Positions 4,201-49,866 of a stretch of DNA of 64,000 nt are shown here, piece by piece. The DNA comes from Tubulanus polymorphus (lineage: Eukaryota > Animalia > Nemertea): assembly GCF_964204645.1 (NCBI RefSeq), contig NC_134026.1:31115432-31179431 (forward strand). Direction: 5' to 3'. The translations under genes were made by a program, and so were the position numbers. Each line of letters begins with the position of its first letter. The first letter of the stretch is position 1. Below the pieces are notes generated by a model. The model saw only the letters and a program-made list of their open reading frames with translations. It had not been told where the DNA came from and did not search any database.

Positions 4201-7200
4201 TGGCGAATAGCTCTGCTTGCATGCAAGCAATTTCATTATAACGTCATTTTCTATATCGGAGATTAACTTTATATGAATAATTGGGTTTTTTTTTCCCACG
4301 ACAGACACCTGGTAGAAACGATAGTCAACAAGAAGGCAGTATAGACGTCATGACGGCATCAGTCAGACAACATCCAACTTTCAGCACAGTTCATAGAATT
4401 AGAAATATAAAGCAACTGGAACGTCTGGAAGTTCTTTATCCAATGAAAACATACGGATTTTGCAATAGAACTTTCCATGTTATGTCTATTGAGGTGAGTT
4501 TGTGACAACAAGGTTTAAAGTTGTTAAACTTATAGTTTCTTTCCCATCGATTATTGCCACATAAAATTTATTTCTTCTTTTAGATCTTCTAAATTCATAA
4601 ATCGAATTAATCTATATTTATTTTACAGTATTTTCCCTACCACTTTTTCAATTTCAAAACCGGAAAATGGGAAGGAATAGTAATAGATTTACTGATCGAA
4701 TTATCTAAACGTATGAACTTCAGGTAACTTTCTCCACGCTTATCAAGCTCCACACAAAACATAGCAAATTAGCAGTTTTCAAGCGTCATTTTAACCCCTG
4801 TGAAGCTGGCTCCCGGTTCCCGGTTCCCGGTTCCTTATTCGGCTCCCGGTTCAAAAGCATTTTGAATCGGGAGCTGAACCAGTAGCCGGCTCCCGGTTCC
4901 CGATTCGGCTCCCGATTCAAAATGTTTTTGAATCGGAAGCCGAATAAGGAACCGGGAACCGGGAGCCAGCTTCACAGGGGTGTCATTTTAACACTTCTTC
5001 ATTTTATTTGTTGTATATAGTTATGTCATATCACCAGCACCTGATAACACATGGGGTGTGCCTAAGAATGGAACGTGGAATGGAATGATCGGAGCTCTTA
5101 TCAAGAAGGTATGTAACTTTATTTAGAGGAAGTAATCCCTAGTTAGTTACCTTATCGTTGGTGGTAAGCTTTTTATAATCGGATGGGCTTATACCAAGAA
5201 GTGGTTTGTGAAAATATCCGATCGGGGAACTAAACCACAGTCAGGTTTAGAGAAATCCCACAATAATCACAATAATCCCACAAAGACTAATTAACCATCC
5301 GGATTGATGGCTGATATAGTCTTTAGCCGAAATGTTGCACTACTGTGTCATTAAGGGCTTCACATCTTTAGCTGAATTTATAGTGGGATTTCCCTCGTTT
5401 ATTCATCTTACACGGGAATTTATGTAATTCATCGACCGGGATTTATCAACCGAATATTCATCCACTGCTGTAGAAATGATGCTGGACTATATTTGCAGGA
5501 GACAGATATGTTAGCTGTTATATTGACTGTTACTGCTGAACGAAATGCAGTCCTCGATTATACAACACCGTTTCTCGATGATAAAACAATAATGGTCATA
5601 AAGAAATCGACATCTGAAAACATTTTCTTGTTCCTGTCGCCATTCTCGAATATGGTCTGGTATTGTTCCATTATTGCAGTACCAAGTAAGCTGGTAAACT
5701 TGTATTCTTTAAACCCCAAATTGGGACGGTTTCGACTTTATTTTACATCGTGAAGCCAATAGATCATTGTCAACATGTTCAGAATCTTCTAGTTATGGGT
5801 TATGTTTTTGTTTTCCAGCTATAGGTTTATTGCTGGCGCTATTCACGAGAATAACTCCGCACCGTGGTAAACAGAAGAACCACCCGCTGAAAGAACCAAA
5901 ACATTCAATTTGGTACACATTGGGTTCGATTGTACAACAAGGTAGGGCCTTGGAAACACAGATTATACGTATCTCCCAATCTATGAAATCGAATGCTCAA
6001 TGACTGATTCATTTTTCCCTTTTCAATGTCGTCAATTATTTTTGGCCGTATTTTGATATATCAGGGAAAGTTAATTGATTGTTTAATTGTTTCAGGTGGA
6101 GTACATCTTCCTGAAGCGCTTTCCGGACGGTTATTGGTAGCTCTTTGGTGGGGGTTTGTTATCGTCCTGTTGGCGTCGTACAGCGGCAGTTTAGTCGCGT
6201 ATTTGTCATTACAAAATGACAAACCTTTCATATCGAAAATAAATGAATTACCGGAAATGAGAGAGAAAGGTTACAAATACGGAGTATTGAAGGACGCCGC
6301 TCTGCAGAATATATTCCAGGTAAGCAACACCGCCGCCTGGATTTCAACCCTTACTCGTATTCGATCCAGTTCTACCGTTACAGATCGAATTCAGTTTTAA
6401 TGTTTTAATCAATTCAATGTTTTAACTTCTGGATCAAGCTTCACAGTCATATGGCTCAGATTTACAATTATATAAGCTCATTCTAAGCTAACATTTTAGT
6501 TATATAGCCAATCTTACAACGTAAGACCAATTCAAGCTAAGTTTGGTCTAAAACAAATTAAAAAACTTAAAACCAGTCTAAGGCCTTCTTAGTTCTAAAG
6601 CCAATCTAACATTCTAAGACCAGTCTATTTAAGATTAAAGACGATTTGATGGACTTTGTCATGGCTGTCCAGTTATATTGAACTCACCACGGTGTCCTGA
6701 TTACTGTCGCCCTGAATCCAACAACATTCGTTTCTATGATGGATTTTTCGTGTTTAACAGACGGCTACAGATGGAATCTATGAAGAAGTCTGGACCGGAA
6801 TGAAAGACGATGAAAACAATTTCATGCCGACAAATTACGACGGAATGAAACGTGTTTTAAACGATAAATACATTTATCTTACATCGAAATATTTGCTGGA
6901 GTCACGAAATATGAGTTTATTCCCTAAAGACGAACAGTGTTCATTAACGCAAGCGAAACAAGAGTTTCTAGGGACGTATTACGCATTGGGATTCCCTCAA
7001 GACAGTCCACACGTGACACGATTCTCTATGGAGTAAGTATGCCTCCCCCTAGGCCCCCGTAACCAGCAGATAATGGCGCGGGACAACGGTGCTTTCTGTT
7101 GTTTACAAGTCACGTCTGCGTTTAGAAACTGAGGAGTGTCACAGATTCAAAAATAAAAAAACCCATGTCTAGTTCTTTGATGAATGTTAATACGTTGACC

Positions 7201-9859: not shown

Positions 9860-12800
9860 CTTTTCATTAGCAAGATGTAGTAAACAAACAAATGCGATCG
9901 GAACGCTTAAATTCTTCGCCATATTTTTGGAGACTTTATTCGGTAGAACGTCGACGAGTTCGCTGAATGTGTGAGTTCCGTTGACGCTATCGTTTAAACG
10001 AGGCGTTTGAGGAGTTTCATCATTCTCCTGTTAAACATAAAATACAACAGTCAAATTAACTCCGACAACAAGAATCAGGGTTCGTCGTACACTTCAACCG
10101 GAATTCCAGGAGGTGTATGAACCCTGAAGAATTGAACTAGAAATCTAGCAGCAGACAGTGTGCGCGTTGCCCCAGATCTCACGGGACCAATAAATTCTCA
10201 ATTCGAGGTACCCGGCGCACCCGCAGCAGGGATGGGTCATTATCAAGATAGATTGAAATAAGAAAACATGTTTGGTGCATGCTATAATCCGAGATAAGAG
10301 TCTGTACATAGGGTCAAAATTTCTTCAAGAAATCGGAGGATATCGAACTGATAAGAGAATAATTTATGATGTAAATGAAATGAAATGAACGCTATCAATA
10401 TAAATAGCTACCTGTACCTTGTCACCCTCGGGGGGAACCATTAAAACATTCCACATACTGTGCTTCAATTTTTTCACGTCCATTTTTTTCGCAGCTTTAG
10501 CGTAAGCGATATCGATTTTACTGACCTGTAATCAAACAAATTTAACTCGTATTATTTTAAACTGGAGACCAATAACAGGAACCGAATCCTCAACTATTCG
10601 AATCCAGGTTTCATGAAAAAGTTAAGCTCTAATTTTTGGTTTAATTACTGAATTGATTACTTCATATTTTCAATAAGAACAATTCAAACTCAACCGTTTC
10701 AAAATTGGATCCTGATCTTACTTTTTTTGGTTGTTCGAGTAAATTATCTCCGGTTAACATCGAAGAACCTTCACCAGCGCCTCCGACATCATCACCTAGA
10801 AAATTATCGGCGGTTTGTTGACTTAAATCGGACATCTGACTGAATTCACCTCCAGCAGTGAAATCAAAACCACCAGCATCGTCATCATCATCTTCCACTG
10901 CAGCAGTCTGTATTCAATAGAAATATACATTCAAAATAGTTATGTAGTATTTTCACCCCTCCCCCTGAGAACTGGAAATCACGAACTTACATCGGCTGGA
11001 CAGAAATTATCGCGATCATTCGCGTTATCATAATCATAATCAGCGACACTAGCGTCGAGATCTTCAGTTGAGTTGTACGTCTGTCGTCGAATCTATTTCA
11101 AATATAATTAAAATTAATTTCTAGGAAACGCTTTTCAAGATCTAGTTCCACAGTTGTGATTTAGAGATAGTTAGAATAACATTGACCAGGTATAAATCAA
11201 AGCCTGTCTATAGGGAACGCGTGCGAGACCAAGCAAGAACTGTTCACTGTAGACATTTTTTTACTTTAGTTTATTTTCAATGAGTTTTAACTCTGAAATC
11301 TCAACTGTGGAACAGGATACTGGATCCAGTTCCAGAGTTAGAGTTAACTCTGATTGAAATCTTAACTTTCTAATCTTCTAACTTTTTATAATGTGATTTT
11401 AGAATGTAAAGTGCTGTGGTTTAGTTCTTAGAAACCGTGCTACCGGGTATATAAGAAAATATATTATCATTATTATTATAACTACATTTACAGCTGATTA
11501 CCGGTAGTAGAAACATGTATTTCAATACTTACTAAAACTTTCGGTTTTCCAAACAATCTGAATAGTTCACAAGGGTCGTAGTGTAAATCATCTGGTAATG
11601 TTAACATCGTGGAACTGTATTTATTTAACGTTGCTTTATTCACAGTCGTTGCTGCCCTCGTTTTCTTGAAATAAACTTCAAAATCAACTGCCTCCGAATC
11701 ATAATCTATTTTAAACGCTGCCTTTTTAGTTTTCGGTTTCTTTTCTTTCGACACGTCTGAAATATTCAAGTAAAAAAAAATTGACCACTTCTCCCTTCTG
11801 ACGATCAGCAATAACTTTCGGTAATTTACGTACCTTTAGTCTGTCCCTTGACCTTCCAATGCGAAGGTCCAGCCCACGTTGTAAGCAATGAAGAATTGAA
11901 GTATGAATATTCACTAGGTTGCGTAGATAGAACTTGTATAAGTTCTCCGACTGTTCCACTTCTATCAAATCATCGAAACAAATACAAAATACAGTAGACC
12001 GTTATTATCTCAGATATCACAGGACTGATCAGTTTTCTGCGAGTGAATTGCGAGGCTTGCAGAGTCCAGTGAACAGATTCAGAACTTACTTGATATTACT
12101 AACTACACTATTAACCATACGAGCCTCTTGACTATCACAACGTATTTCATCAGATTCACCGAAAACTTCATCACCTCGATCTAAAAAATCATATCAAACA
12201 TGACGTGAATCTACTAAACGCGGCTAGGATGGTGATTTTACACCGAGGATAAATTGAATTAGAATAGAAATCGGGACTCAAAAATAGAGATAAACTTTAA
12301 AGGCCAGGGTAAAAAGAAGTACTAATAACTTCAAGGACTTTTTCGGCAATTTTTGACTCGAAAATAAGTACTCTCCAGTTAAATGAGGGCCCATAAGGAA
12401 GCATTTTCGCAAAGCCTTTGCCGGAATACTAGTCATGTAGACCAATCATATATACCAGGCTAATTCCATAACACTTTCCTTCAGTCAAATTTGGAAGGAC
12501 TTTTTTATCAAAAGGAAGGACTTAGAGCCAAAGAGAAGGACAAAGATGATGTTTGTCCAAACTTTTTCCAAAAGAAGGACAAAGAAGGACTTGGAAGGAC
12601 CGCTGGAAACCCTGTTTAGAACTGCCGTATTATAGCCTAAAGGTCAACCCCTGTTTTGGGCTAATCAATTCAAGTTAATGTAGTATGAACTGCTGTTATA
12701 ACTACATCAAGTTGTTGTTTGTTCACTCACCATCAGCAGCACCGTAATCCTCATCATCCGTGTAACCCTCGTGAGTAGGTTGATACTGGTGAGGATCGTT

Positions 12801-15756
12801 AGGAATCGGTTCGGGTTCTGCTTCCATATCGAACGCGTGACTGTCGGTTTTACCAAATAAAACACTCGACGAACCCTACACAAATAAATGAACTAAATTT
12901 AACTGATGGACCGACATGACTAGACTGTTTGATACTGATTTAACTGAGGGACCGACATGACTAGACTGTCTGATACTGATTTAACTGAGGGACCGACATG
13001 ACTAGACTGTCTGATACTGATTTAACTGATGGACCGACATGACTAGACTGTCTGATACTGATTTAACTGAGGGACCGACATGACTAGACTGTCTGATACT
13101 GATTTAACTGATGGACCGACATGACTAGACTGTTTGATACTGATTTAACTGAGGGACCGACATGACTAGACTGTCTGATACTGATTTAACTGAGGGACCG
13201 ACATGACTAGACTGTCTGATACTGATTTAACTGAGGGACCGACATGACTAGACTGTTTGATACTGATTTAATGCCGTTCTCTTGTTAGTCACTTACGAGA
13301 CAATTTTTATCCCAGTTCGTAAATGTGAAATCAGCGAATGCTGGACACACTTGAACATCTTCAAAATCACGTCCTCGGAACTGACCTGAAAATAAATCAC
13401 ATTCTTAATCACAGGTTTACAGGGTTCATAGTTGTAAGGCTAACTGGTTGATGTGGAACTGGATGTATAACTGGTGGTTGTGGAACTCACTGGACTCTGT
13501 CGATATATCGAGAACTTTTTCGTGTTCGTTAATAGTTCTATGGGTTGTTGCCATGACGACTGCGTTTGAATCGAGCTGTAGCTGAGATGAGTTGTCGACT
13601 GTGTATAGATGATTCAATAACAGACCGGTGGTGCCACCTTCATCGAACGTCGAAGCCATTTGATGAAATAACGGATCAACCTGGAAAACATTGTAAAACC
13701 ATAAAAATGATTCGGTTATAAATAGAGTCGGCTGTGCTTCTGTCTCCAGACTGCGTGTCTAGGAGCTGATTGCATCACACGCCACGTATCATAAAATATC
13801 TAACTCCAATTCATATAATAATGAGCCATCCGTGCTCCGGCTACCTCGGAGTAAACTGATTGGATCCGAAGCAAGCGCCGTCTACTGGAGGAGAATATTA
13901 CTTAAAACTCACCTCAAATTCCAGATCAAATTTTTTCACTTTGATATTTTTGAGATTTGTTTCTACTGTTTTACCGGACTGAAATGAGAACAATATACAA
14001 TATCAAACATACTCGAGATTGATATATCAAGAGTGAAATCTCAAAATAAAAATCTCAGATATCAAGTTTTCTTATCCTGCCGACAATTGAGGAGTTCAAC
14101 TGATTTTACCAGGAACTCGATCAATCAATTTGAAGGTCAAATTTGCGCAGTGTTGTCATCATAGATTTTCTGAAGTTCAGGCCCCGAGTTACAGTTAGCC
14201 AAATGAGGAACCGAGCGAGGGGAAGATTGAGGTTTTCTTACCCTTCGAAATCGTTTCTGTTTCTTAGCCACTTGTTGTGAACAATCCTCCTGATTATCAA
14301 CTTCATTCCCACCATCTTCCGCATTATTCGAATCTACGATAAATCAAATTCATCTTGTGAAATATTTTAAGACCAAGATTTTAAGGGGCCACGCATCCAT
14401 GAGAGGGACAAAGTCAAATTTTCACTATGTAGATTATGCTCAGAATTATGATCTTTATTGATGAGGGAATTTTTTAGAAATATTCCAATGAATTAAGAGA
14501 GAAATCACGGGTGAAATGAAAACAAACCTTTCTGTCCGAGTCCACCTAACATTTTATACGTATCTGAGTGTATCGCATCAACTCTTCCCGCGTATATTTT
14601 AGCACTAGCGTCTAACGTAGAACTAGCAACCTGTATAATTATAATCCATTCATTACAAATCAACCGAACGCAATTAAACTTTTCACGGACCTAGAAATGT
14701 TTAAAATTTAATACCTGAAAATTGCTCATTTCTTTTTTCTTGATCAGATCAGCCATATAATCGATAAGATGAAGACCAAATGCATTTTTCGCATTAATTT
14801 TCTGTAAAAGAGAATTATTTTCTAAAATATTTTCAGCCACATTTGAGTTGATCAGAGTAGTCACTAGTGTTATCCACAATGCCTCTTGCACTAAATCTAA
14901 GAACTCAAGTGGTTGAGGGAACCTGACTGGTTTGAAGGATGCTCTGAATGGAGCTCAGTTTGGGTTGAAGGAATTTAACTTACATTTTCAGCTGATAATT
15001 TGATACAGTTTGTATAATGTTCAGATAGTTGTGCGTTACTGAGACCGTGGAGAGGAGCCGTTCGAGATCTGAAACAAATCAAACTCCAGTCATCACAGTG
15101 TCACATTAATGAAGTCATCTCTATTTTTGAGTCCCAATTTTGCAATTCAATTTACAAAAGTGTAAGTTATCATTTTGATAAATCATCAGTTGCAAGTCGG
15201 GCCGGTTCCATAGTCGTGGCTTAGACTTAAGACCAGTCTAAGACCATCTTAGTTCTATAACCAATCTAACAACTTAAGACCACTTTTCGTCTTTTAGACT
15301 TAAGTCTCGACTATGGAACCAGCCCCTCAAGTCTTGTCGACTTGAGTTCAGTTAAACTCGAGTTAAACATCTCTATTTTCTAATCTCAATTCAATCCAAA
15401 TGACGACTTACACTTAGTAAATTATACGTCTAATTCAAGTACAAGTCATCAATCAGTCACAGACATCAGCTGTGAGTTTCATCATACCTGTCAGTAGGAC
15501 TGGATCCAGGGCTGCTCAGGTGCATTCGTTGAAGTTCTAAAACTTTCGATCGGCGTCGAGCTTTTTTCTCCGCGATGTCGTCGTTCTCCCGGGCGACGCT
15601 CGTCGGGGACGACATCGACCCGGAGCCGCCGCCCGTGAACACCGACACATGACGTCTCGTAGAGGGCGACACGTAATCCTGTCGAGGAGTTACAGTCTGA
15701 ACGTGTGAAACACTTCCTCCCCCTGTCGGTGTTTTAAATACACTATCAGCCGCCAT
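9860..15756 (-). CDS. NCAPH: Condensin complex subunit 2 (kleisin NCAPH / Barren). Multi-exon; the 3'-terminal exon is not resolved.
   Basis: ATG at 15754-15756 and first exon 15488-15756 ('[29 protein letters not shown]', matching human 'NDDEKERLQRRRSRVFDLQ'). Exon ~14714-14880 ('[20 protein letters not shown]', cf. human '[20 protein letters not shown]'). Exon 14528-14630 ('[28 protein letters not shown]'). Exon 12731-12875 (acidic region). Exon within ~11488-11811 ('[28 protein letters not shown]', cf. '[27 protein letters not shown]'). Exon 10722-10907 ('[11 protein letters not shown]..'). Exon ~10431-10537 ('[20 protein letters not shown]'). Exon 9860-10027 ('..[21 protein letters not shown]', matching human '[21 protein letters not shown]'), followed by the donor 'gtaaat', so at least one more 3' exon exists. 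Confidence 0.9.
12888..13270. repeat. 41-bp tandem repeat (~9 units) in an NCAPH intron
   Basis: Unit 'aactga(g/t)ggaccgacatgactagactgt(c/t)tgatactgattt'. Confidence 0.9.
15199..15326. mobile_element. MITE family A (terminal inverted repeats GGGCCGGTTCCATAGTC ... GACTATGGAACCAGCCCC)
   Basis: 128 bp with perfect inverted termini. The internal 'cttagacttaagaccagtctaagacca..agttctataaccaatctaacaacttaagacca' core is shared with copies at 18608, 29267, 33447-34150, 37782, 38650 and (degenerate) 48826. Confidence 0.8.
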
Positions 15757-16357: not shown

Positions 16358-19300
16358 ATGGCGGACGAAGAGAAATCTCGTGTTTTGCAATGGAATGAAA
16401 TGGATTTAGACGACAGAATTCTCCTGGTAAAGTCTTAATACGATGTAACAAACCAAGAACAGACAATCATAGCTGTTACATAATTAGAAAACACAGTTAT
16501 TCAATGTCAGGCGATCTTAATCTGGGCATCCATTTTTGACTGAAATTGAAACTCAAATCCAAGTCAAATCATCAATTCAACAACTTCAATCATTCATTCA
16601 CACAACACAACTTCAAAACAAAATGTTGGCCTACAACGTTGCATGCAGGTCCAGCATTTAGCATTTAGGGCAATGGAATGAGCAAGTTGGACTACTACAC
16701 TTGCCAGCCCACCTCAAACTGTTTTGCCTTTTTTGGCAATTAATCTGCCGTTTTTGGCGTGACAGATGTTGATGATTGTGATAGATTCTATAGTTGTTTA
16801 TTTTATAGGCGATATCTAAATTAGGATGGGCCGAACCGACGATGATCCAAGAGAAAGCGATACCTTTAGCTCTTCAGGGTAAAGATATTCTGTCTCGAGC
16901 TCGAACTGGATCCGGAAAAACTGCTGCATACGCGATACCAGTTATACAGAAAATACTCAACTCTAAACAGGTGGGAGACGAATCTTAGAATAATATAGAC
17001 CCAGTTTCACCAAATAGTCCTGCTAAAAACTAAAGTTTTCGGTTACACATTTTTGCTGCAAGTTCAAACTTAACCATTTGATTTGAAGCTTAAATTTTTT
17101 CACGAAACTGAACCCGGGAGCAAAGGAAAATTTCTGAATCCTTGAGAAGAGTTCCTGCATTCTAGAATCCAATCATTTGAAATCTTGATATTTTTAACAG
17201 ATGTTGATGTTATATTTTTTACAGTTAGCTACGGAACAGACTGTAAAGGCGTTCGTGCTCACCCCGACGAAGGAACTGTCGCATCAAGCTTACAAAAATA
17301 TCCTTGATTTAACGGCGAATTGTTCTAAAGAAGTAAAATGTATCGATATTTCTGGTCAGATTGAGTTGGACGCTCAGAGACCGATGTTAATGGAACAGCC
17401 CGATGTCGTAGTCGGTCCGCCCAGTCGTATATTCGCGCATTTAAAAGCCGGAAATTTGAAAGTGAAAGAATCGTTAGAACTTCTGGTCATCGATGAAGCA
17501 GATTTAGTTTTCTCGTTCGGTTACGAAAATGACGTCAAACAAATATTGAAATATTTACCGAAGATATTTCAGTCGTTTTTGATGTCAGCGACGCTCAGCG
17601 AAGACGTGAAATCACTGAAAAAACTCGTTCTTCATAATCCGGTGATCTTAAAACTGGAGGAGGCTCGACTTCCGGAAACCAGTCAACTTACGCAGTATCA
17701 TATCAAGTGAGTTTATACGTGAACATATCATTTAGGACTAACTTTAGAGAGACCTGAACACTGGGGTCTTACAGATCAAACAAAATAGGAGGAAATCAGG
17801 GAATTTTGCTCAGTAGGATAATCGGGCAATTTGAATTTTTAGTATCTTGTTCTTGCTCTGGTGATGAGTGACACAAACAGCCCTCACTGAGGATGTCTTA
17901 TAATTCGATCAGGGAATTCAAATTCTAACCTCTTATCTGTAAGAGCCCTATGAAAATGTGTTTATTATAACCAATTGAATTTAGAGAATAGTTTTAAACT
18001 ATTGCGTTATTTTTGCTCTATGTTTTAGATGTGAACAAGAAGACAAGTTTGTACTGATTTATGCGCTGTTTAAATTGAGATTGATTTTGGGTAAATCTCT
18101 AATCTTCGTCAATAGTGTTGACAGATGTTATAAATTGAAACTGTTTCTGCGACAGTTCGGAATTGGTACATGCGTTCTGAATTCAGAACTACCCGGAAAC
18201 TCTCGGTACGTACCGATATTAGATACGTTTTAAATGTTTTAGGTACAAAAGATGAATTTGTTTTGATGGTATTTATTACAGGTGTCACATTGTAAATCAG
18301 TTCAACGATGGTTTATACGATGTATTGATTTCCTCAGATGAACGCGCCGACCAGATTCAACAGAAAGGCAGTCAGAAAAACCGTAAGAAAAGGTACCTAT
18401 CATTTTATATTAACTGATGTTTGAAAAATTATTCTGACATTCTCAAGGAACCTTAGCGGCAATTGATTTCAAATACAGTGAAATGTGGTCGCCTTGTATG
18501 CCTCGGATTATTGCGTGTCCCACACGACAAAATGTTAAAGATTGTCCTAATTTAATCCTTGTGATGACCAGCCATCATCACTCTGGAGAATTTACTTGCT
18601 GCCCTCTGGGCCCAGTTCCATAGTCATGGCTTAGACTTAAGACCAACTTAAGGCCATCTTAGTTCTATAACCAATCTTACAACTTAAGACCAGTGTAAAC
18701 TAAATTTGGTTCTTTAACCAATCTAACAACTTACGACCAGTCTTAAAATCTAAGTCCATTTTTGGACTTAAGTCTCAACTGAGGAACCGGCCCTCTCCGG
18801 TCAAATTTACTAGCTGCCTCAGGGAGTAAATTCATTGGTCTTGTGAAATCGTGATTAGAGTCTCTTCTTGCATTAAGTATTTTATTTTTTCTTAGGAAGA
18901 AGGATCTCGAATCAGGAGTTTCACGTGGTATCGATTTTCAGAAAGTTTCGAACGTAATAAACTTTGATTTTCCGATGGATGTGGATTCGTATATTCACCG
19001 AGTTGGACGGACCGCTCGCGGCGACTGTAAAGGAACCGCTCTATCATTCGTCAGTTTAGACGAAATGCCGCGTCTAGAAGAAATAGAAAATACATTATCT
19101 GATAGCACGCGTGAGTACAATACACAATAAAACTAATTATATGCAAATATATTCACTGATAAAACTAATTATGCAGATTTATTCATGTGTTTGTTTGTGT
19201 TTGATTGGTGGAATTTTCATTTATTTCAAGCGGAAGGGACGAGTTTGTTTAAACCGTATAATTTCAAGATGGACGAATTGGAAGGTTTTAGATATAGAGC

Positions 19301-20595
19301 AAAGGTTCGTATTACAGTCAAACTTGACTTAGTCACATTACGGAAGTCATTTGAGTCTCAATTTGTTGTATTTCCAATTCTATTTACTCAGTGTAAGTAG
19401 TTTATGTAATTGATCGTCACAATGACTTAGTCAACAGGGTCCAGTTCCACAGTTCTGAGTTAAGATTTGACCCTGGGTTAAAACATTGAAAATGAACTAA
19501 CTTTAACTCAGAGTTAACTCTGACTCAGAACTGTGGAACTGGGTCCAGTTTGATAGAATCATTATTTAATGTAACTTTCACTATAATCATTGTATGATGT
19601 TAAATGTTTGTAGGATGCGATGAGAATGGTGACTACGATTGCTATTAAACAGGCTCGAGTCAAAGAAATAAAAGCTGAACTATTAACGTCAGAAAAATTG
19701 AAAGTACGTCCTTTAAAATGGAATATGAACTCGTTGTCGTTTTTGTTGATGTTAGGAAAGATTTTATGAAGTGAAACGATGTTTATATCTTTTCAGTCGT
19801 ATTTTGAAGATAATCCTCGAGATTTACAGGTTTTAAGACACGATACAAACTGTAATCCAATTAGAACTCAGTCTCATATGAAGAATGTACCGGATTATAT
19901 TAGTAAGTTATATCATTATTTACCACAAAAGAAAGCCGTAGGCTGATTTACATACTGTGACAGGTCTTAGATACACTTAGGCAGGACAGTATAGACTTTA
20001 TTTACAGACAGCCTCTTAGTTTTGATATTTCAATGTCCTTTGTGAAGAACGCACCTCAAATTATCAAGGTGCTGCCATTAAAAGTCCTATCTTGTCTCTC
20101 TTGTTTATGTCTTCTACGGTTTTGTTTAAAAGTATTTAGAATTCTTCTCTTATTTAAAAGATTTGTGTACTTATAAGTTTCCCTGATTGTACCCTGTTGT
20201 GGATGGCAGCGTCAGGGTTGTAGATTCACACTCTTCAGTCTGGGAGAGGCTCAGTGTTTTACCAGTGTTAGTCATATCGACGACAGTATTTTAATGTATC
20301 TCTATTTTGACCAACTCAATGGCTGTTTTTCTCTCGTGCAGTTCCGCCGACGCTACAGAAATTAAAACGACCGATTTCTTCGACTAAAACTGGAGTTTGG
20401 AAAAAGAAGAGTAAAGAACAGGAACGAAGACCTACTCGAGGAGAATTAAAATATCAGGTATGTTTTAACTCCGTGTGAAACCTTTTAACCCGTCGTGAAG
20501 CACACGCTCAATAAACTCCTCTCTCTTTTCAGAAACGAAAAGCCGATCCTCTGAAAAGTTTTGAATTCAGAACAGAAGCCAAAAGAAAGAAATGA
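16358..20595 (+). CDS. DDX56: Probable ATP-dependent RNA helicase DDX56 (nucleolar DEAD-box helicase); 11 coding exons
   Basis: Exons 16358-16426, 16809-16970 ('[39 protein letters not shown]', near-identical to human DDX56 '[39 protein letters not shown]'; Q-motif and motif I), 17225-17706 (PTKELS, VIDEAD, SAT motifs), 18029-18205, 18292-18392, 18896-19109 ('HRVGRTARG', motif VI), 19231-19304, 19614-19703, 19796-19902, 20342-20457, 20533-20595 (stop TGA). AATAAA-like signal at ~20611. Confidence 0.93.
18608..18793. mobile_element. MITE family A copy in a DDX56 intron
   Basis: 'gggcccagttccatagtcatggcttagacttaag...ctcaactgaggaaccggccc'. Confidence 0.75.
19436..19546. mobile_element. MITE family B (terminal inverted repeats GGGTCCAGTTCCACAGTTCTGAGTTA ... 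TAACTCTGA(C)TCAGAACTGTGGAACTGGGTCC)
   Basis: Near-perfect hairpin. Related copies or fragments lie at 11286-11360, 30732-30858, 39295-39420, 44473-44557, 45301-45515 (double), 48330-48385 and 61946-62014. Confidence 0.75.
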
Positions 20596-28901: not shown

Positions 28902-31900
28902 ATGTCTAATTTTGCCGCAGGTGAAGATGAAGACAGTCAGAGTAAACGACGTAAACATGGAATGCTTAAGATGTATTACGGAATAGCAGACGATCAGAGC
29001 GGAGCGTCTGCTTCTATTGATCCGTGCGATATTAACGGAGCTCATTTCAAAGCTGATATATTCTTGAATAAACTCCTCCGCGAGAAGAGTCTCGCTGAGT
29101 TAATGGATAAAGAGTCTGAGATGGTTAAGAATATTAAATCCCTAGACAGTGATATGCAGACATTGGTTTATGAGAATTACAACAAGTTTATCAGTGCTAC
29201 TGATACTATTAGAAAGGTCAGGTTACAGATTATTCACGGGCTTTGACGCAACCTTGTTTATCCCCAGGGACGAGTTCCATAGTCATGACTTAGACTTTAG
29301 GTCTAAGACCAGACTAAACTCATTTTGTTTCTATAACCAATCTAACAACTAAGACCAGTAGTCAAGATTTGAGATCATTTTTTGGACTTTTTAAGTCTCA
29401 ACTATGGAACTGTCACCTGTATCCTAGTAAGACAATTACTTGGATATTTGGGGTAAACAAGTTTGTGTCAGGACCTTTTGCATACTCCAAATGCTTTTTA
29501 TCCAAATGGCTTTTATTAAAGTCTTCTTGCCGTTATAGATGAAGAATGATTTTAAGAAGATGGAAGATGAAATGGATCGTTTAGCTACGAATATGGAATC
29601 AATAACAGAATTCAGCGGTCGAATTAGTACAACATTACAGGATCGTAGACAACAGATCACTAAACTAGCCGGAGTTCATATACTACTTAAAAAGGTTCAA
29701 TTTAACAATCTGAAGCACGTCTCTAAATGTTTTTCTTACACGTTTTTGTAAATGTTTCTTTCTCTGATTTCAGCTTCAATTCCTATTTGAATTACCAGCG
29801 CGTCTTAAAAAGTGTATTGAAATGAAAGCTTACAGTCAGGCAGTGCGGTATGATATCTACTTGTATATTACCTACTGCCGTATTACCGGTATTACTGTAT
29901 TGTATTCTGATTTCTATCGTATTTTCCAGATATTACACGAAAGCTCAGAAAGTTTTATGTCACTATCAGGACATGCCTTCATTTCACGGTATACAACAAG
30001 ACTGTAATGAAATTGTCAAAGAACTGCGATCGAAATTGAAAGAGAAATTCCGCGATAAAGAGGTGGTGTTTTACCCTTGGAAAATTCTAGTATTTCGCTT
30101 TCTATCAGTATTGTAAACATGGATATTTTATCTGATCATTTTTCAGTCAACTCCGAAAGAATTAGCTGAATGTGTCGATTTGTTGCTACAATTGAATGAA
30201 CCAGCTGAAGAACTATGTGAGGAATTCTTATCTCAGTAAGTGTGTTAGTTAACAGCCAATTAACCAGCCAGCTTACTTCATAAACTATTCAACCAGCCAG
30301 CTAACTGCACAAACCAGTCCGTCAGCCAACCATCTAGCGAGGTGACCACCAAACCAGTTGACCAGCCAGACATCCATCTTTTTATTTTTCAGTGCTCAGC
30401 AGAAAATAGATGAAGATCTTCAGAAGTTGGAGTATCAGTTAAAATTACAATCAGGAGAAATAGAACCAAAAACTACAACTGAAGTTGAACGTCCTTCAGA
30501 TGTTTATCTAGACGTCAATTTACCGGTGGTAAGATCAATATTCATTTCGTTTATGATTAGAATGAAAAATATTCACAAGAATTTTACAAAATCATCGAAG
30601 CAACTTTTCTGCCTATTTCAGAAAGAGCAGCCAGTGGTGTGTTTTATATTGTATTTATTGGGCATGATTCATAGAAAGTAACAAATAACGTCACCCTTTT
30701 AGATAAAGAATATTCCTCGTATTATTTAATAGTGTAAAACTCAGGATTCAGTTCCACAGTTTGCTGGTTAAGATTCAACCTTGAGTTATGATTAGTTCAT
30801 AACCGATGTTTTAACTCTATTGAGTCTAAAATCTAGAACAGGTAAAACTGTAGAACCGAGTCCTGGGTAAAACTAGTTACTAATTGTGTTTGTAGATGTT
30901 TAACTTTGTGAGTTAAAGATGGTGGAAATTATACTTAATCATTGCACGATTTAGAATTGTTCCAGAAAATGCATGTCACACCTTGTTTTGATCATTTTAA
31001 ATGTAGTTTAGTTAAAAATTTTAGATATGATACATTAATTTTACATAGAAATCCAACAAAAATTAACCATTAACCAATTCATAGTTATATTCATACTTTC
31101 ACTTATTACTAATACATGTGTTATTTTTATGTGCACAGCTTTAAAATGTTCACCTTTTTCTGTGTGTGATGATTCATCTTTTGGGCCCATTTGCTGCCAG
31201 GACCCAGTTCACAAACTTGTCCGGTTAAATTTGACTCCAAAATTAGAATTCATTCTCGATGTTTTATCTCTGGAGTCAAATTCTAACCGTGGAACTGCAT
31301 CCATGTTGATAGATACCACAGTAACAGTTTTAATTGTTAAGTCAGTTATCCACTTATTTACTCTAGCCTACTTTTAGGACAACTAAACCTCTGAAGGTTC
31401 AATAGAAATTGCTCTAACGATTCTATTTTAGAACTGTTTAAAATGTTTTACTTCATTGTAGTTGATTTTAACAAGAATTTTCTTTCTGAAATGCTGTAGG
31501 ATATTTTGGAGTTTATTGATATCGGTTGTAATGGTTTTCTCAGTAACGTGTGTCTGGTGATTGCTGTTTACAATGATATGTTCCTCAAAGGAGAAAGGTA
31601 TGAAATCAATCTCTCCGATCCTCCCCTCCCCCCTCCCCAGTCCTACGAATAGTCAGTGAATATTGAGATGATGTCTATTTATGTTACAGTGAATCTTTTG
31701 ATGGCATCGCTTTGAAGAAATTAGTTATATTTATAAATGGATTGATGGAAAGATATTTCTCTTTTGTGGAAAGACGAGTTCAACTTGAGGTAAGATTAAT
31801 TTCTATCAACTGCTAGGACACAGGGCTCTTATAGATCAGCAGAAAAAATCGGGGAATTCCAAATCTGATTTTCCCTGCATCAAAAATCTGAGAATTGACC

Positions 31901-34900
31901 ATCGACCCATCGCCTTTTGGGCCGACCACGCTTTCTGGCTCCTTCAGGGATGCCCTGGAAAATGGTATTGGCCATTAACCCTTGGGCTCTCATCATGTGG
32001 CCAGACCAGAACATCTTCTTTGGTTTGAAAACAACTAGCTGATTAGACTGCCTCTTGAGTCTAGACCTGTTGAAATCTATCCTGATTGCAAGTAGCAGTT
32101 TTATTTATTTGTTTGTTTATTTCACAGAAAGCGACAGGTGATAATACGATTCTAGTTCGAGCTTTAGATCGATTTCACAGACGTCTTCAAGCGATGAATA
32201 AATTGCTACCGGATACGGATTTCTCTCGAGCTGGGATGGATATTGTACGGAGAGCCACTCGCGACCGCGTCGAACATTATCTTCAATCCTGTCGACAAAA
32301 CTTTTCTGGTGCGTTATTCACATCACGTCAATGTTACATATGTCAAAGAAAAAGGGTACATTGTCAAAAACAATAGATAGATAATGTCAGAAAAGGATAT
32401 TTTCTGTAGAAAAATGCAGAATTTTGTTTAAAATTCTGTAAACAAATCTAATTTTTCCTGCTGAAAGCTACTGCCACAAGAATTAAGTTTTCTAAGTGAT
32501 TTGTGGTAGAAGATTTGATAAGACACTCAGATCTTACCCTCGGGTTTTCATTTCTACTCGCTATGATTCATTATTGAATAATCATTTGTAGATTGTTTGA
32601 CTGACATCAGACAAACTCTCGCCGCGCCTCGACTTGTAGCTAAAAACGAAGGTTTATCCGGTCTGGCGGAATTATTGAATATGACCATCAGTTCAGTTGT
32701 CGATCAAGTGAAATCAGTTTTAGTAAATCTTCAAGCGTTTATAGCGTCTGATATCACGTTCGCGATGAAGTCATATTTTCGAGGTCCGTTTTGCACGGAG
32801 GATGTAAGAGAAGGTCTCGTTGTCAGCTTTATAAAACACATTCTACAAGTATGTAAGGTAAGGTCTATAACCGTTGATGAAGTTCATCTTGTAATGATAT
32901 AAGATCAGGGTCCGATCTAAGCACTTGTCCGATTGCCCGGGACAAGTATATTCTCATCAGGGCAAGTAAGTTATCATTATTACTTGTCCGCTGGGCTAGT
33001 GCAATTTCATTTCACATAACTTTTTTCCCACTCGATACAACGGATGATAGTGCCACCAATCAGACTGCCTGTGTAGGGCAAGTAGCTTTTGGAGGGGGCA
33101 AGCGAAATTTCAGATATGCTTGCCCCCGGGCAAGTGGCTTTCATTCCTTAGATCGGACCCTGAAGATGCAACACAGTTCCTCTGTTATCAGTCTATTGAT
33201 TTTCTCTGTTGATTTATTACAGGAATTTTGTCAAGGAACCGCTGATAAGGGTTCAGCTGCTCCTGCTTTACTATTGATTTTATCGCGGTTGTGTCAAGAT
33301 TTAGAATCATCCACCATACATTACCTTGTAAGTACCTCCATCTGTTTTTGATTGGACTCCACAGATTCGGGAATTATCTCCTGGCTCAGAATACACTCTA
33401 CCTATTCCAGAATAGTATAATCTGTATGTAAACACGTAAACAACCAGGGCCCAGTTGCATAGTCAAGGCTTAGACTTAAGACCCGTCTAAGACCAACTTA
33501 GTTCTATAGCTAATCTATTAACTTAAGACCAGTCTTAAGATTTAAGACCACTTTTGGACTCAAGTCATGACTGTGCAACTGGCCCCAGGGGCTGGTTGCA
33601 TAGTCATGGCTTAGACTTAAGACCCGTCTAAGACCAACTTAGTTCTATAGCTAATCTAACAATTTAAGACCAGTCTTAAGATTTAAGACCACTTTTGGAC
33701 TCAAGTCATGACTACGCAACTGGCCCCAGGGGCCGGTTGCATAGTCATGGCTTAGACTTAAGACCCGTCTAAGACCAACTTAGTTCTATAGCCAATCTAA
33801 CAACTTAAGACCAGTCTTAAGATTTAAGACCACTTTTGGACTTAAGTCATGACTGTGCAACTGGCCCCAGGGGCTGGTTGCACAGTCATGGCTTAGACTT
33901 AAGACCAGTCTAAGACCAATTTAGTTCTATAGCCAATCTAACAACTTAAGACCATTCTTAAGATTTAAGACCACTTTTGGACTTAAGTCATGACTGTGCA
34001 ACTGGCCCCAGGGGCTGGTTGCATAGTCATGGCTTAGACTTAAGACCCGTCTAAGACCAACTTAGTTCTATAGCTAATCTAACAACTTAAGACCAGTCTT
34101 AAGATTTAAGACCACTTTTGGACTTAAGTCACGACTGCGCAACTGGCCCCAGAAGCTACTAGTGGTAGTAGAGAGATTGACATTGGTCTCTTGGTCTCTA
34201 CGAATTCGGGAATTTTCTTCTAGTGTGCTCGTTCGACCAACATACGCTCTACCTATTCCGGGATAGCATAATCTCTCAATCTGATAGAGAAGCCGGTAGA
34301 GAGTTTTGTAGGTTTTGATTGGTCTCTACCTACGTTCTCTTTGAATGGTCTCAGTCGCATCTGTCTCGACCAGAATATACTCAACCTATTCCAGAATAGC
34401 TGAAAGAGAAACAGCCAGTAGGGAGTAGAAGGATAACCACACTCAAACGTGGTGAACGGATAACAAGATAAAAAACCCGCTACTCTACAGACACCTGACG
34501 ATGATCTCTAGGGTGAGATCGAAACGTCGTGTATTTTATATATTTCAGATTGTTCGAATAAATAAATTCTTGTTTTTAAATTCTTTTAATCTGTAGATAG
34601 TGGGTTTTTATCTTATTAGCCAGTAGAGAGTCTGTAATCTGGAAATGCTATTCTTAAACTGGAATACGTTCAATCAAAACCTGCTTAAATTATTATATGT
34701 TCAATGATGAATTCTGAGTTAAATTCTCCTCTGATTTTATCTTTATTTATTTACAGTTGACTTTGACAGAAGAATTGTTCTCGTGTATGACCGATCATAA
34801 ATTCAACGTAACGCCTTTAATTGATTTGACGAACGATGCTAAAGGAACTGCTCAATTATTACTGGATCATTACGTTCATATTCAAGGATTTACAATCTCA

Positions 34901-37900
34901 CAGGTAACAGTAGCGCCATCTACACAAACTATTCATAAACTATCAGCTAATTAAGCCCCCCTCCATCCTCTGAGCTTCAATCAGCAGATTGCAAGAGAGG
35001 AACCAGGATTTGAACCGCAGGACGGTGGATTGATGAGCGGTTTATGGTACCCACTCTTTCAACCACCCCACCCACTCACTCACTCACCCATACACCCACC
35101 CACCTCACCCACCCACCCACCTCAAACACCCAACCACCGACCTCACCCACCCACCCACCCACCTCACCCACTCAGCTACATCTCTTGTATTGTCGTCATA
35201 TTTTGTAGATGATTCGTAAAAGTGTTGAAACGAGAGACTGGCAAAATACGATCGAACCGCGTAACGTTCGAGCCGTCATGAAACGTATTGTTGAAGATAT
35301 CACGGCAACAGACGGACAAGTTGGTCAGTTATACGAGGAGGGGACGCGGAAAGAGAATAGTGACTCGAGTAGGAAAACGTATAGTGTTAGTAAACCACCT
35401 CGATCGCAATGGAGTTATACACCCAGGTATAATATATACCACACAACTTCAATACCTACTAAATCACTCTATTTTCATCTGTGTGGGATTGATTTATTTG
35501 GATATTTCGCTTAATCTATTTGAACACATACCTCAAATCGGTTTAAAGACATCCAGTGAGACAAGTATATCCAACCCAACTCAATACTACAGTGAAACTT
35601 TAAAGCCTAACTCACCCAGTCCTAGTTCATGGTACTCTATACTATCAAACTGACCACACGGGTGTTAAGGTTCTCAGTGAAAGCTTACTAGGACATGGCC
35701 AGCTCAAGACTTTTCACTATCTGGGACAAAACATGAAATCATTTTCTAATTTCCTTTTCTTGTTTTCCGTTCACCCAGTCCTGGTAGTGTGGTTGTCTCC
35801 AGAGTTGTACATCAGAGACTAGGGTTGGAGTTGTCCAGGACCACTATGTAACACTGGGTTCACCCAGTCCTGGTAGTGTGGTTGTCTCCAGAGTTGTACA
35901 TCAGAGACTAGGGTTGGAGTTGTCCAGGACCACTATGTAACACTGGGTTCACCCAGTCCTGGTAGTGTGGTTGTCTCCAGAGTTGTACATCAGAGACTAG
36001 GGTTGGAGTTGTCCAGGACCACTATGTAACACTGGGTTCACCCAGTCCTGGTAGTGTGGTTGTCTCCAGAGTTGTACATCAGAGACTAGGGTTGGAGTTG
36101 TCCAGGACCACTATGTAACACTGGGTTCACCCAGTCCTGGTAGTGTGGTTGTCTCCAGAGTTGTACATCAGAGACTAGGGTTGGAGTTGTCTAGGACCAC
36201 TATGTAACACTGGGTTCACCCAGTCCTGGTAGTGTGGTTGTCTCCAGAGTTGTACATCAGAGACTAGGGTTGGAGTTGTCCAGGACCACTATGTAACACT
36301 GGGTTCACCCAGTCCTGGTAGTGTGGTTGTCTCCAGAGTTGTACATCAGAGACTAGGGTTGGAGTTGTCCAGGACCACTATGTAACACTGGGTTCACCCA
36401 GTCCTGGTAGTGTGGTTGTCTCCAGAGTTGTACATCAGAGACTAGGGTTGGAGTTGTCCAGGACCACTATGTAACACTGGGTTCACCCAGTCCTGGTAGT
36501 GTGGTTGTCTCCAGAGTTGTACATCAGAGACTAGGGTTGGAGTTGTCTAGGACCACTATGTAACACTGGGTTCACCCAGTCCTGGTAGTGTGGTTGTCTC
36601 CAGAAATGTACATCAGAGACTAGGGTTGGAGTTGTCCAGGACCACTATGTAACACTGGGTTCACCCAGTCCTGGCTCTCTGTCGCTCTACGATCCTAGTG
36701 TCTGTGGTACATCAGAGACTAAGGTTCTTGGTGAATCTATAACTCAAACTTTACTTATCTCAGACCATTTTTGCCACTGGTCCCAGTTTCTGTGAGTTAG
36801 ACGAGGATAACTGTGTATATTGTAGGCTGTCTATCTACCATACTGATAATATATTGTAATGTAATGTTGTATTATATTGTAGCACTATAGACAACAGTCT
36901 CATGTCAAACATACAGAAATTGTTCTCAGAGAAAATTGAAATATTCAGCGCCGTAGAATTTTCCAAAGTATCCGTTTTAACTGGTATCATTAAAATAAGT
37001 CTGAAGGTAAGAAAAACCTATCAATATTTCATCATTTTTTATTTGTTTATAAACGGTAGTTTAAGATTTAATGAATATTTATTTGTGTTTTTTAGACGTT
37101 TCTGGAATGCGTTCGATTAAGAACCTTCGGTCGATACGGTTTACAACAAATACAAGTTGATACACATTATTTACAGTTATATTTATGGAGATTTGTATCT
37201 GATGAGAAGTAAGTACCAGGTTATGTGATACCTGCTCATTAACGTCAACTGTGTGTGAACCACTGTTCTATTTTAGCACCTATGGGGCTATAGAGTGTTA
37301 CGAACCTCAAACTGATGGAGCTCGGTGTGGTTTCAATAGATTTTGACTCATTTTCTCTGCAGCATTTCAACACTCATTTACTTCCATTCCGACAACGCTA
37401 TTATAAGTAGCTTTATTAACAGAAGATTAATGTTACGGTATATAGATATGCTTAAGTCTTTTGACAAGACATTATTAGCAATACAGTGGATAAACAATTA
37501 CCTGATACCTGATACCCTCGCATAGTTAGGATAGGATAAGATTGTCAATTTGTATAGGGTTTTTCAAATTACAGAATTATTATCAAAGGCGCTCCCCTGA
37601 AACAGGTGATGACTTGAACAGAGATGTCTCGAGCTGTCGTTGTAATCCTGACCGGAGAGAGGGTTGGTGTTAGGGGATTCCGTACGATGTGTACAACTGT
37701 CTCAAAAGCACGACCCACTGAAGTTGGGTTTACTGGATTTTCAGTATCAGATCCTGGCTCTCCACTCTTGTTCCTGTTCTTGGCCCAGTTTCACAGTCAT
37801 GGCTTAGACTTAAGACTAATTTAAGACGATCTTAGTTCTATAACCAATCTAACAACTTAAGACCAGTCTTGAAATTTAAGACCATTTTTGGACTTAAGTC

Positions 37901-38421
37901 TCAACTGAGGAACCAGCACCTGGTTTATAATGAAACATGATGAAATGTATCTGATACCTGATTTTTATCGTTATTTTAGTTTGGTTCATTTTCTATTGGA
38001 TGAAATAGTTGGAAGTACAGTACATCGATGCCTGGATGCCGTTATGATGGAACAGAGTGTAAGTTTTAATCCCTGTCATATTTCATTGTTTTATCGCGAT
38101 GGATATTGAAATCATAAAATACCTTATGCTTTATGTTAATGATATGCGAATGTCAAAGGCTTAATAATTCACATTTTTTGTACACGAAAAATCGAAATCG
38201 GTTTTTTGGTGAAAATTCTAAATCCCCAATAAACTGTTCATGCATTTGAATAAAGAATTATCTCTGATTTATATCATGCGCACCAATTACATCCTCGCTT
38301 GCCAGGGCTTCGTCAAACCAATCCCTGGCAAGCGAGGGCTGCTCATTTCTACAGGATTCAATGAATATATAAGATGAATTTTATTTTGTAGGTGATTGAT
38401 TTGATTTGTGAACGAGGTTGA
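28902..38421 (+). CDS. VPS51: Vacuolar protein sorting-associated protein 51 (GARP/EARP complex subunit); 17 coding exons
   Basis: Exons 28902-29216 ('[38 protein letters not shown]', identical over long stretches to human VPS51), 29539-29694 ('[19 protein letters not shown]..'), 29774-29847, 29930-30062, 30147-30235, 30393-30528, 31500-31597, 31690-31789, 32128-32308 ('[12 protein letters not shown]'), 32592-32857, 33223-33327, 34757-34903, 35209-35426 ('[20 protein letters not shown]'), 36883-37006 ('[22 protein letters not shown]'), 37096-37208 ('[15 protein letters not shown]'), 37980-38058, 38392-38421 ('VIDLICERG*'). Confidence 0.93.
29267..29417. mobile_element. MITE family A copy (VPS51 intron 1)
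   Basis: 'gggacgagttccatagtcatgacttagac...ctcaactatggaactgtcacc'. Confidence 0.7.
30732..30858. mobile_element. MITE family B copy (VPS51 intron 6)
   Basis: 'caggattcagttccacagtttgctggttaag..ctgtagaaccgagtcctgg'. Confidence 0.6.
32905..33153. mobile_element. MITE with terminal inverted repeats CAGGGTCCGATCTAAG(C/G)A..TTGCCC (singleton family E) in VPS51 intron 10
   Basis: 32905 'cagggtccgatctaagcacttgtccgattgcccgg' is the reverse complement of 33118 'gggcaagtggctttcattccttagatcggaccctg'. It also has internal 'gggcaagt' sub-repeats. Confidence 0.65.
33447..34150. mobile_element. Head-to-tail tandem array of 5 MITE family A copies (period ~140 bp) in VPS51 intron 11
   Basis: Each unit runs 'ggg(c/g)c(c/t)(a/g)gttgcatagtcatggcttagacttaagacccgtctaagaccaacttagttctatagctaatctaacaa(c/t)ttaagaccagtcttaagatttaagaccacttttggact(c/t)aagtcatgact(g/a)(t/c)gcaactggcccc'. 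Unit starts are at ~33447, 33589, 33729, 33869 and 34009. Confidence 0.85.
35030..35200. repeat. C-rich microsatellite (CCCA/CCCACC/CTCA)n, G-rich on the minus strand
   Basis: 'ccaccccacccactcactcactcacccatacacccacccacctcacccacccacccacctcaaacacc..'. It lies in VPS51 intron 12. The ORF 35030..35212 is an artefact. Confidence 0.9.
35775..36690. repeat. 89-bp satellite, ~10 units, in VPS51 intron 13
   Basis: Unit 'cacccagtcctggtagtgtggttgtctccagagttgtacatcagagactagggttggagttgtccaggaccactatgtaacactgggtt' at >97% identity. Confidence 0.95.
37782..37917. mobile_element. MITE family A copy (VPS51 intron 15)
   Basis: 'tggcccagtttcacagtcatggcttagacttaag...ctcaactgaggaaccagcacc'. Confidence 0.7.
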
Positions 38422-39294: not shown

Positions 39295-39420
39295 AAGATA
39301 GCCGTGTGGACCTGGCTCCACAGTTGCCGAATTGCGATTTGACTCGGAGTTAACTCATCGAAAATGAACTAATTTAAACTCAGAGTTAACTCTAACTCAC
39401 AACTGTGGAACTGAGTCCTG
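39295..39420. mobile_element. MITE family B copy
   Basis: 'ggacctggctccacagttgccgaattgcgatttgactcggagttaactcatcgaaaatgaactaatttaaactcagagttaactctaactcacaactgtggaactgagtcc'. Confidence 0.7.
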
Positions 39421-44472: not shown

Positions 44473-44557
44473 CGGCCAGTTCCGCAGTTGTTGAGTTTAG
44501 ATTTGACCTTAGAGAGTTTACTCATTTAAAATGACTCGACAACTGTGGAACTGGATC
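44473..44557. mobile_element. MITE family B copy, immediately followed at 44579-~44730 by a partial MITE family C copy
   Basis: 'ggccagttccgcagttgttgagtttagatttgacc..caactgtggaactggatcc', then 'gccgcgatcacacgggcg...' whose start equals the terminal inverted repeat of the element at 1947-2258. Confidence 0.6.
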
Positions 44558-45300: not shown

Positions 45301-45515
45301 CTGGATCCAGATCCACAGCTGTTCCGTAAGAATTCGCTTGATTTGAAACGTTGAATATGAATGAACTTATAGAGTTTACTCTAACTTACAACTGGATCCA
45401 GTCCTACAGTTTGTGAGGGCTAGAGTTAACTCTGAGTTCATTATTCATTTTCGAATGTTGTCAAACTCTTGAGTCAGATCTAACCCAGAACTGTGGAACT
45501 AGGTCCTGCAGAGGT
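45301..45515. mobile_element. Two adjacent MITE family B copies
   Basis: 'ctggatccagatccacagctgttccg..caactggatccagtcctacagtttgtgag..cccagaactgtggaactaggtcc'. Confidence 0.55.
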
Positions 45516-48500: not shown

Positions 48501-49109
48501 GCCTAGTGTTTACATCAGTGTTTGATCTGCAAAAGAAATAAAAAAACCGGTCTCCGTATTCGATATCGGAAACATGTGAGACGAAACTTCAGTTATGAAT
48601 AACACACAAAAGAAGAATTGATATGTAATCAGTATCAGTGAGTTATTAGACTGTATCACATTAATACCCATTATTAAACACGCACACACTTACAGACACA
48701 CCTACAAATCATCGACAAACCCTCAGAAAAAAACAACGAGACGGATTTTTTGTCGGATTTTTATTTCGCCCATTTTCTTACTGTCGCCGATATCAACAGA
48801 TATGTTTCTGTCAACTGTAAACCTAGGCCCGCAGTTTTACAGTGATAGCTTAAAGACCATCTTCAGTACCAGCTTTTCTAACAACCTCAGGCCATATAGC
48901 TCGATGATTAAAGACCACTTTTGGGCCAAAGTTACGACTGGGAATTTCGGATACGGTTCCACAGATATAAACCAAACCACGCCCGCCTAACGCCTGATTT
49001 TTTCTGAGAATGTAACTTCTACATTTTGACTAGGAACTAGTCCGAGGAACTAGTCAAACGAACCCAGATACACCGTCATAGTCTCTATACCAACTGAATC
49101 CTAAAAAAT

Positions 49110-49620: not shown

Positions 49621-49639
49621 GTCCTGATACTAAATAGAG

Positions 49640-49830: not shown

Positions 49831-49866
49831 TGAATACTGTTCGAACCCATATATATTTTAACCGTC

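Follow-up and report, generated by a model that had tools for sequence, protein, structure and literature searches.

The 64,000-nucleotide stretch of Tubulanus polymorphus DNA considered here (NC_134026.1, positions 31,115,432 to 31,179,431; hereafter the window) carries, according to Pfam, the genes Cnd2 (NCAPH) and BCCIP on the minus strand, and a DEAD-box gene (DDX56-like), VPS51 and a fragment of an ionotropic glutamate receptor gene on the plus strand. A 1.4-kb intron of VPS51, between exons ending at ~33326 and starting at ~34757, harbors a tandem array of five copies of a hairpin element, here termed family A, single copies of which are scattered over the window. An original prediction had described this dispersed hairpin family with its five-unit head-to-tail array and had named NCAPH, DDX56 and VPS51 as host genes; the former is borne out by Tandem Repeats Finder (TRF), by a motif count against shuffled sequence and by a hidden Markov model (HMM), and the latter by Pfam matches to Cnd2 (minus strand), DEAD and the VPS51 N-terminus. 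Family A is likely to be a cut-and-paste DNA transposon of the non-autonomous kind, namely a MITE (miniature inverted-repeat transposable element), which would duplicate a CWG triplet upon insertion, would belong to the NuwaI group of the PHIS (PIF/Harbinger-ISL2EU-Spy) superfamily, and would have formed the array by way of an insertion-born dimer and subsequent unequal exchange; this estimate is meant for all of these parts taken together.

The array and the copies of family A

The array is composed of 138-bp elements that alternate with CAG triplets, as follows:

33445..34152, plus strand: whole array with its duplications, CAG-(138-bp element-CAG)x5, from TRF, triplets and elements verified by coordinate
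33448..33585, plus strand: array element 1, which lies at the edge and has diverged most (91.5-95% identical to the others)
33589..33726, plus strand: array element 2
33730..33867, plus strand: array element 3
33871..34008, plus strand: array element 4
34012..34149, plus strand: array element 5

TRF places the tandem array at 33454-34152, with 5.0 copies, 95% matches, no indels and a period of 141, which replaces the 140 bp given previously. CAG was found at 6/6 triplet positions around and between the five elements by coordinate check, and each junction contains exactly one target duplication, the same triplet as at both outer flanks. When the window was scanned for CWG followed by GG and closed by CC and CWG, with matching ends, the array region was the only match, and the reversed-sequence control gave 0 matches. 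The five units total 705 bp, the array consists of exactly five units and an overlap of 4 nt (CCAG), and no open reading frame (ORF) of at least 30 aa lies within it. The DNA hairpin fold of an array unit has a z of -8.8.

The five units are of common descent. Their pairwise identity is 91.5-97%, corresponding to 3-8% divergence, and they differ at 16 positions, which argues against copying and pasting by the assembler. The units have variants in common that are absent from most single family-A copies, and the array consensus is about 84-88% identical to most of these copies and 92% to the neighboring 38650 copy, its nearest relative. Because the units share array-specific variants and are closer to each other than to most single copies, the array appears to be a local amplification of one lineage, and not a recent one. 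All units carry the end variant GTTGCATAGTC/GACTGTGCAAC (GTTGC.../...GCAAC) and not GTTCCATAGTC; the earlier description as a MITE with conserved termini is right in that the ends are consistent, with this amendment for the array. Compared with the copies at 15199, 18609 and 29268, both inverted ends of the array units (33448-34149) show a mirrored change, from GTTCC to GTTGC on the left and from GGAAC to GCAAC on the right, with hairpin pairing kept, while the 38650 copy has the right-arm change only. Such mirrored changes suggest stepwise co-evolution of the arms or conversion between them.

Within the window, single copies were located with an HMM profile of the array unit. Family A occupies 8 loci in 64 kb, namely the array, five clear single copies and two degenerate copies:

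15199..15325, plus strand: single copy in an NCAPH (Cnd2) intron, flanks GTC/CTC
18609..18793, plus strand: single copy in a DDX56-like intron, 47-bp sub-repeat x2.2, flanks CTG/TCT
29268..29416, plus strand: single copy directly after VPS51 exon 1, flanks CAG/CTG
37782..37919, plus strand: single copy ~45 bp upstream of what seems to be the final exon of VPS51, flanks CTT/CTG
38651..~38917, plus strand: copy with 47-bp sub-repeat x4.3 and damaged right end, the array's closest relative (92%)
~6432..6671, plus strand: degenerate copy in the glutamate-receptor-like gene, left flank CTG
48839..48943, plus strand: degenerate copy, found with the array-unit HMM

The copies measure 128-186 bp, or ~265 bp with extra sub-repeats. 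The internal 47-bp sub-repeat occurs once in the basic element, 2.2 times in the 18608 copy and 4.3 times in the 38650 copy (TRF), the last in agreement with the roughly fourfold internal expansion noted there before. The inverted ends are roughly 25 nt long and start with GG(G)CC.GTT, and 26-nt arms are 88% complementary; the ends read GGGCC/GGCCC/GGGCT..., and some copies begin with GG or GA. When up to 3 mismatches are allowed, the window contains 18 matches to the terminal motif GGGCCRGTTCCATAGTC, compared with 0.11 expected from dinucleotide-preserving shuffles, and in alignments the homology among family-A copies ends at the same base, beyond which the flanks are unrelated. The properties that define a MITE were each found when tested, namely short length (below ~800 bp) without coding capacity, terminal inverted repeats, a flanking duplication (see below) and dispersed copies in unrelated contexts. 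The family had also been called highly active, which is not supported, given a pairwise identity of only 84-92% among single copies, the decay of half of the duplications and the lack of a transposase in the window. Placement within VPS51 introns holds for the array, which lies between VPS51 exons, but not for the 38650 copy, which starts ~540 bp beyond the apparent last VPS51 coding ORF and is probably not intronic.

The asymmetric core of family A is on the plus strand at 8/8 loci between 6432 and 48943 (two-sided binomial p = 0.008), one of them within a minus-strand gene; this bias could be due to chance, or to selection in introns. The 18609 copy (region 18580-18830) stands between imperfect direct repeats of 17-18 bp, AATTTACTTGCTGCCCTC / AATTTACTAGCTGCCTC, of which the right one is shifted by 10 bp and belongs to a small hairpin, and this insertion possibly went into another short repeat. 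No family-A copies are present in the VPS51 loci of three relatives, scans of metagenomes for the core and end sequence gave 0 matches, comparison with sequence printed in papers gave chance 11-mer matches only, and Rfam on the window returned nothing on the repeat, so that the account of the family is drawn from the copies in the window. No host function is indicated for family A or the array.

Flanking triplets, the sister family and proposed superfamily placement

For the analysis of flanks, each end was anchored 9 nt outside the conserved GTT. An exact CWG lies just outside 9/14 independent ends of family A and c19437 (background 3.2-4%, binomial P about 1e-10), and outside 18/25 independent ends when family A is taken together with the sister family described below (background about 4%, P about 1e-20), while flank positions -4 to -9 show no clear conservation. 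The middle base is matched between the two sides in 7/10 copies, and all three flank bases are identical on both sides in 3/10, namely the array, c19437 and 45395-45505. These flanks are read as a 3-bp CWG target-site duplication; a check for such duplications had been proposed with the original prediction, and its outcome makes a superfamily assignment by structure possible. Candidates for longer duplications of 5-8 bp (CAAGTC at c15199, TATCC at c29267) do not exceed what mismatched or random pairs of flanks yield and were put down to chance, and TA, TTAA, TWA and T|T flanks were ruled out by inspection.

On both sides of the array (33352-33446 and 34153-34440) lies a local repeat of ~133 bp with diverged units, X1-X3, which is the source of a candidate paralogous site that lacks the insertion:

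34400..34425, plus strand: paralogous 'empty site' in repeat unit X3, AAACAGC-CAG-TAGGGAGTAG, against AAACAAC-CAG-[array]-AAGCTACTAG in the array-bearing unit

At the position of the array, the X3 paralogue has a single CAG, and 16/20 flanking bases match; this is one case, from X units that are only about 60-80% alike.

A sister family, A2, has the same ends as family A (GGTCCAGTTCCACAGTT...) with an unrelated core, and is represented by ~9 copies of about 105-118 bp in the window, on both strands and with CWG flanks:

19438..19545, plus strand: sister-family copy with a perfect CAG/CAG duplication
45395..45505, minus strand: copy with a perfect duplication, abutting the 45304-45391 copy
45304..45391, plus strand: copy inverted relative to its 45395-45505 neighbor, with a shared CTG at 45392-45394
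11245..11372, minus strand: head-to-tail pair of two degenerate copies, with a single CAG joint at 11320-11322
30745-30862, 31201-31301, 39309-39417 and 44475-44557: further copies

The element at 19438 had originally been grouped with family A, with which it shares its ends; its core is different, hence it belongs to the sister family. As the two families combine the same ends and CWG flanks with different cores, this implies that one transposase mobilized both. Adjacent elements sharing a duplication were seen 3 times, whereas about 0.28 would be expected at the local density if CWG sites were used at random (Poisson P = 0.003).

The NuwaI group of PHIS elements is characterized by CWG duplications and by inverted ends of 12-61 bp that usually start with GGG, and is confined to animals (Han et al. 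2015, Mob DNA 6:12; PMC4482050). Judged by structure alone, family A and its sister family would be placed in the PHIS superfamily and its NuwaI group, because the duplication is a 3-bp CWG and the inverted ends start with GGG/GG; the duplication and the length and start of the ends were found as described for NuwaI, and the host is an animal. In contrast to NuwaI, only non-autonomous copies are seen here, as the DDE transposase and the Myb/SANT ORF that define the group were not found in the window. Neither a transposase domain among window ORFs of at least 90 aa nor an autonomous element in the window was detected, and the family-A transposase must be encoded elsewhere in the genome.

Proposed origin of the array and competing explanations

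The proposed sequence of events would begin with the insertion of an element at C-A/T-G, with duplication of those three bases. The array itself would start from a head-to-tail dimer of one lineage with a single shared CAG, which under the favored route would arise when a second copy inserts into the CAG already duplicated beside a resident copy. Unequal exchange or slippage between the 141-bp repeats would then expand the dimer to five units, which would subsequently age to their present 3-8% divergence. Both the origin of the dimer and the mechanism of expansion are inferred, and second insertion is put forward tentatively, as the leading candidate among several. In published work, double insertion at a single target, followed by growth through unequal exchange, is recognized by one target duplication at every junction (McGurk & Barbash 2018, Genome Res; PMC5932611), and this is what the array displays, with one duplication at each junction, equal to the outer flanks, and CAG at 6/6 positions. 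The sister family speaks for insertion as well, since at its head-to-tail junction (11320-11322) only CAG separates a right end from a left end, and its inverted adjacency at 45392-45394 cannot arise by slippage, so that insertion next to a resident copy does occur; the excess of adjacencies that share a duplication counts for insertion as well.

Several points weigh against the joint reading. The end anchor was picked after inspection of the data, the duplications are fully identical in only 3/10 copies, and two copies (c29267 and c30748) read CAG...CTG, as would be expected if the inverted ends were 3 nt longer. In addition, c18608 better fits TCT/TCT with a left end 1 nt longer, the paralogue with the empty site is only about 60-80% identical, and with no transposase in the window the superfamily is assigned from structure only. 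As to the dimer, units as alike as those of the array would need a second, independent insertion from the same lineage, and plain duplication between the flanking CAG/CCAG copies is simpler.

The latter process is the strongest competitor. Here the first dimer would form without transposase, through replication slippage or unequal sister-chromatid exchange between the CAG (CCAG) repeats that flank one insertion, with the hairpin ends bringing these repeats together and unequal exchange following later. The product would be the same in sequence as that of a double insertion, the array length of exactly five units plus the CCAG overlap fits, each unit is a strong hairpin, the units are monophyletic with shared lineage-specific variants, and the near-identity of the founding units needs no further assumption. 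However, a homology of 3-4 nt is very short for exchange, and the inverted adjacency that shares the CTG at 45392-45394 is left unexplained. Slippage across a palindrome is, moreover, better known for deletion than for duplication. Taken together, slippage is possible but somewhat less probable than second insertion.

A more far-reaching variant of the insertion route holds that the transposase preferentially re-inserts at the CWG duplicated beside a resident copy, so that head-to-tail arrays would grow by transposition itself and not by recombination alone. If true, this would constitute a transposase-driven route from a MITE to a dispersed satellite, and because each unit retains its two ends together with a CWG beside them, multi-unit blocks could be mobilized as composite elements and the tandem form could spread through the genome. 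The excess of adjacencies (3 versus about 0.28) is compatible with such a preference, and equally with local hopping or slippage, and we regard the proposal as unlikely.

The CWG might instead belong to the inverted ends, as their outermost bases (CAG...CTG, a pattern shared by many hAT elements), in which case the true duplication, and the superfamily, would be a different one. This would account for c29267 and c30748, which have CAG at their left and CTG at their right, and right flanks are indeed mostly CTG. However, the middle flank base among 14 ends is A in seven, T in six and G in one, a split of about 50:50, whereas the neighboring element bases are nearly fixed at this divergence, which places it outside the element. 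Three copies, moreover, read CAG...CAG or CTG...CTG, no longer duplication is found further out, where the longest words common to both flanks do not surpass those of mismatched or random pairs, and the array junctions would require two overlapping, non-complementary ends. Accordingly weighed against a CWG duplication, this reading is improbable.

Circularization of an excised element, followed by rolling-circle copying and re-integration of the concatemer, has been proposed for arrays of whole transposons such as Bari1 (PMC5932611), and the internal junctions of the present array are all identical. For this route, the junction triplet would have to coincide by chance (about 1 in 64) with the CAG of the outer flanks and of the paralogous empty site, and the ends are complete, not trimmed as in Bari1, with no partial edge unit; it is thus very improbable as the source of the array. 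The probability that remains after insertion, slippage and rolling-circle copying falls to other or unrecognized routes.

Helentron-associated elements (HINEs, such as DINE-1) resemble family A in being short, non-autonomous elements with central tandem repeats in gene introns; they are described with subterminal inverted repeats, a microsatellite, a 3' palindrome, T-rich or TT insertion sites and no duplication (PMC7492417). That family A might be no cut-and-paste transposon at all, but a satellite monomer in dispersed form, a rolling-circle element of the Helentron type (HINE) or an artefact of assembly, could draw on the location of all eight loci on one strand and on internal tandem sub-repeats like those of HINEs and 'pearl'-type elements (PMC7492417), yet it is highly improbable given inverted repeats that are terminal, with no 3' palindrome, microsatellite module or other HINE hallmark, flanks that are CWG and not T|T, a short duplication where HINEs make none, a second family that combines these ends with another core, and 16 private or shared differences among the units.

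Other repeats of the window and comparison with known systems

The exon translations of VPS51 and DDX56 have best protein matches that are 69-81% identical, with Saccoglossus at 68% and Branchiostoma at 67%, and no PDB relatives helped to place the VPS51 exons. Apart from the two families, the following features were recorded:

46647-46719 and 47088-47160, plus strand: mir-252 precursor hairpins, 440 bp apart (Rfam RF00838, 62 and 53 bits)
4794-4981: unrelated 188-bp hairpin MITE with ends ACCCCTGTGAAGC... and a perfect 9-bp duplication GTCATTTTA (4785-4793, 4982-4990)
8898-9749: 60-bp x 14 array, 97% matches
35769-36674: 89-bp x 10.2 array, units 99% identical, downstream of the VPS51 exon at 35.2-35.5 kb

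The two mir-252 hairpins speak for a non-vertebrate bilaterian host, and the genes identified with Pfam likewise point to a bilaterian animal. The length of the 9-bp duplication suggests that the MITE at 4794-4981 is of the Mutator or Merlin type. On the minus strand, the unit of the 8898-9749 array starts with CTG+GGCCTGGTTTCATAGAC, in which 16/20 bases match the left end and flank of family A (chance roughly 0.05), with no right end; a 302-aa ORF running through this array was rejected as an artefact of the repeat. The junction of the 35769-36674 array forms a short palindrome (ACTGGGT TC ACCCAGT), its unit has no single copies in the window, and the array is much younger than that of family A. 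The divergent genes NCAPH and DDX56 are separated by DNA that includes a short (TAACCC)n tract resembling telomere repeats (16228-16262), and a 75-bp x 3 repeat at 49609-49839 contains a tRNA B-box-like GGTTCGAACC, although ARAGORN finds no tRNA gene. None of the seven other arrays of the window (periods of 60, 41, 89, 49, 62, 199 and 75 bp) has single copies elsewhere in it, hence they are not further cases of the same process.

For annotation, the dispersed hairpins are to be treated as one family with the tandem repeat of 141 bp, a family that is old and not currently active at the array locus, and an autonomous element of the PHIS type is to be expected in the genome. The locus illustrates cleanly how, in nature, a transposon takes the first step towards a tandem repeat, in a group in which this step has had no specific description. 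The original prediction spoke of a MITE seeding a satellite, which is accurate in that whole elements are joined head to tail, but overstated as to the satellite. Satellites form arrays of kb to Mb at high abundance, whereas five units (705 bp), with no other array of the 141-bp unit in the window, amount to a micro-array.

Tandem dimers of transposons, including P, hobo, R1 and Bari1, and transitions from MITEs to satellites are well documented (PMC6947457, PMC9659126, PMC5932611). The dimers analyzed by McGurk and Barbash (PMC5932611) resemble the present array in that whole elements stand head to tail and every junction, like both outer edges, carries exactly one duplication, and in the later growth by unequal exchange that is implied. 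However, those cases concern P, hobo and R1 in Drosophila, with duplications of 8 nt or 33 nt and with population data, whereas here a 138-bp MITE with a 3-nt duplication is seen in a single assembly. Satellites derived from MITEs and MITEs carrying tandem repeats include SGM of Drosophila guanche, Xstir/miDNA4 of Xenopus and pearl/DTC84/BIV160 of bivalves (PMC6947457, PMC9659126; PMC3879986). In these, as in family A with its 1 to 4.3 copies of the 47-bp sub-repeat, a MITE is the repeat unit or the carrier of a tandem repeat; in contrast to family A, where the whole element with both ends is repeated in 5 units, mostly an internal segment has been amplified, or the arrays are large. The array is hence a further case of the known step from transposon to tandem repeat, tidy and instructive but ordinary and not surprising, and it leaves the general view of transposons and satellites unchanged.

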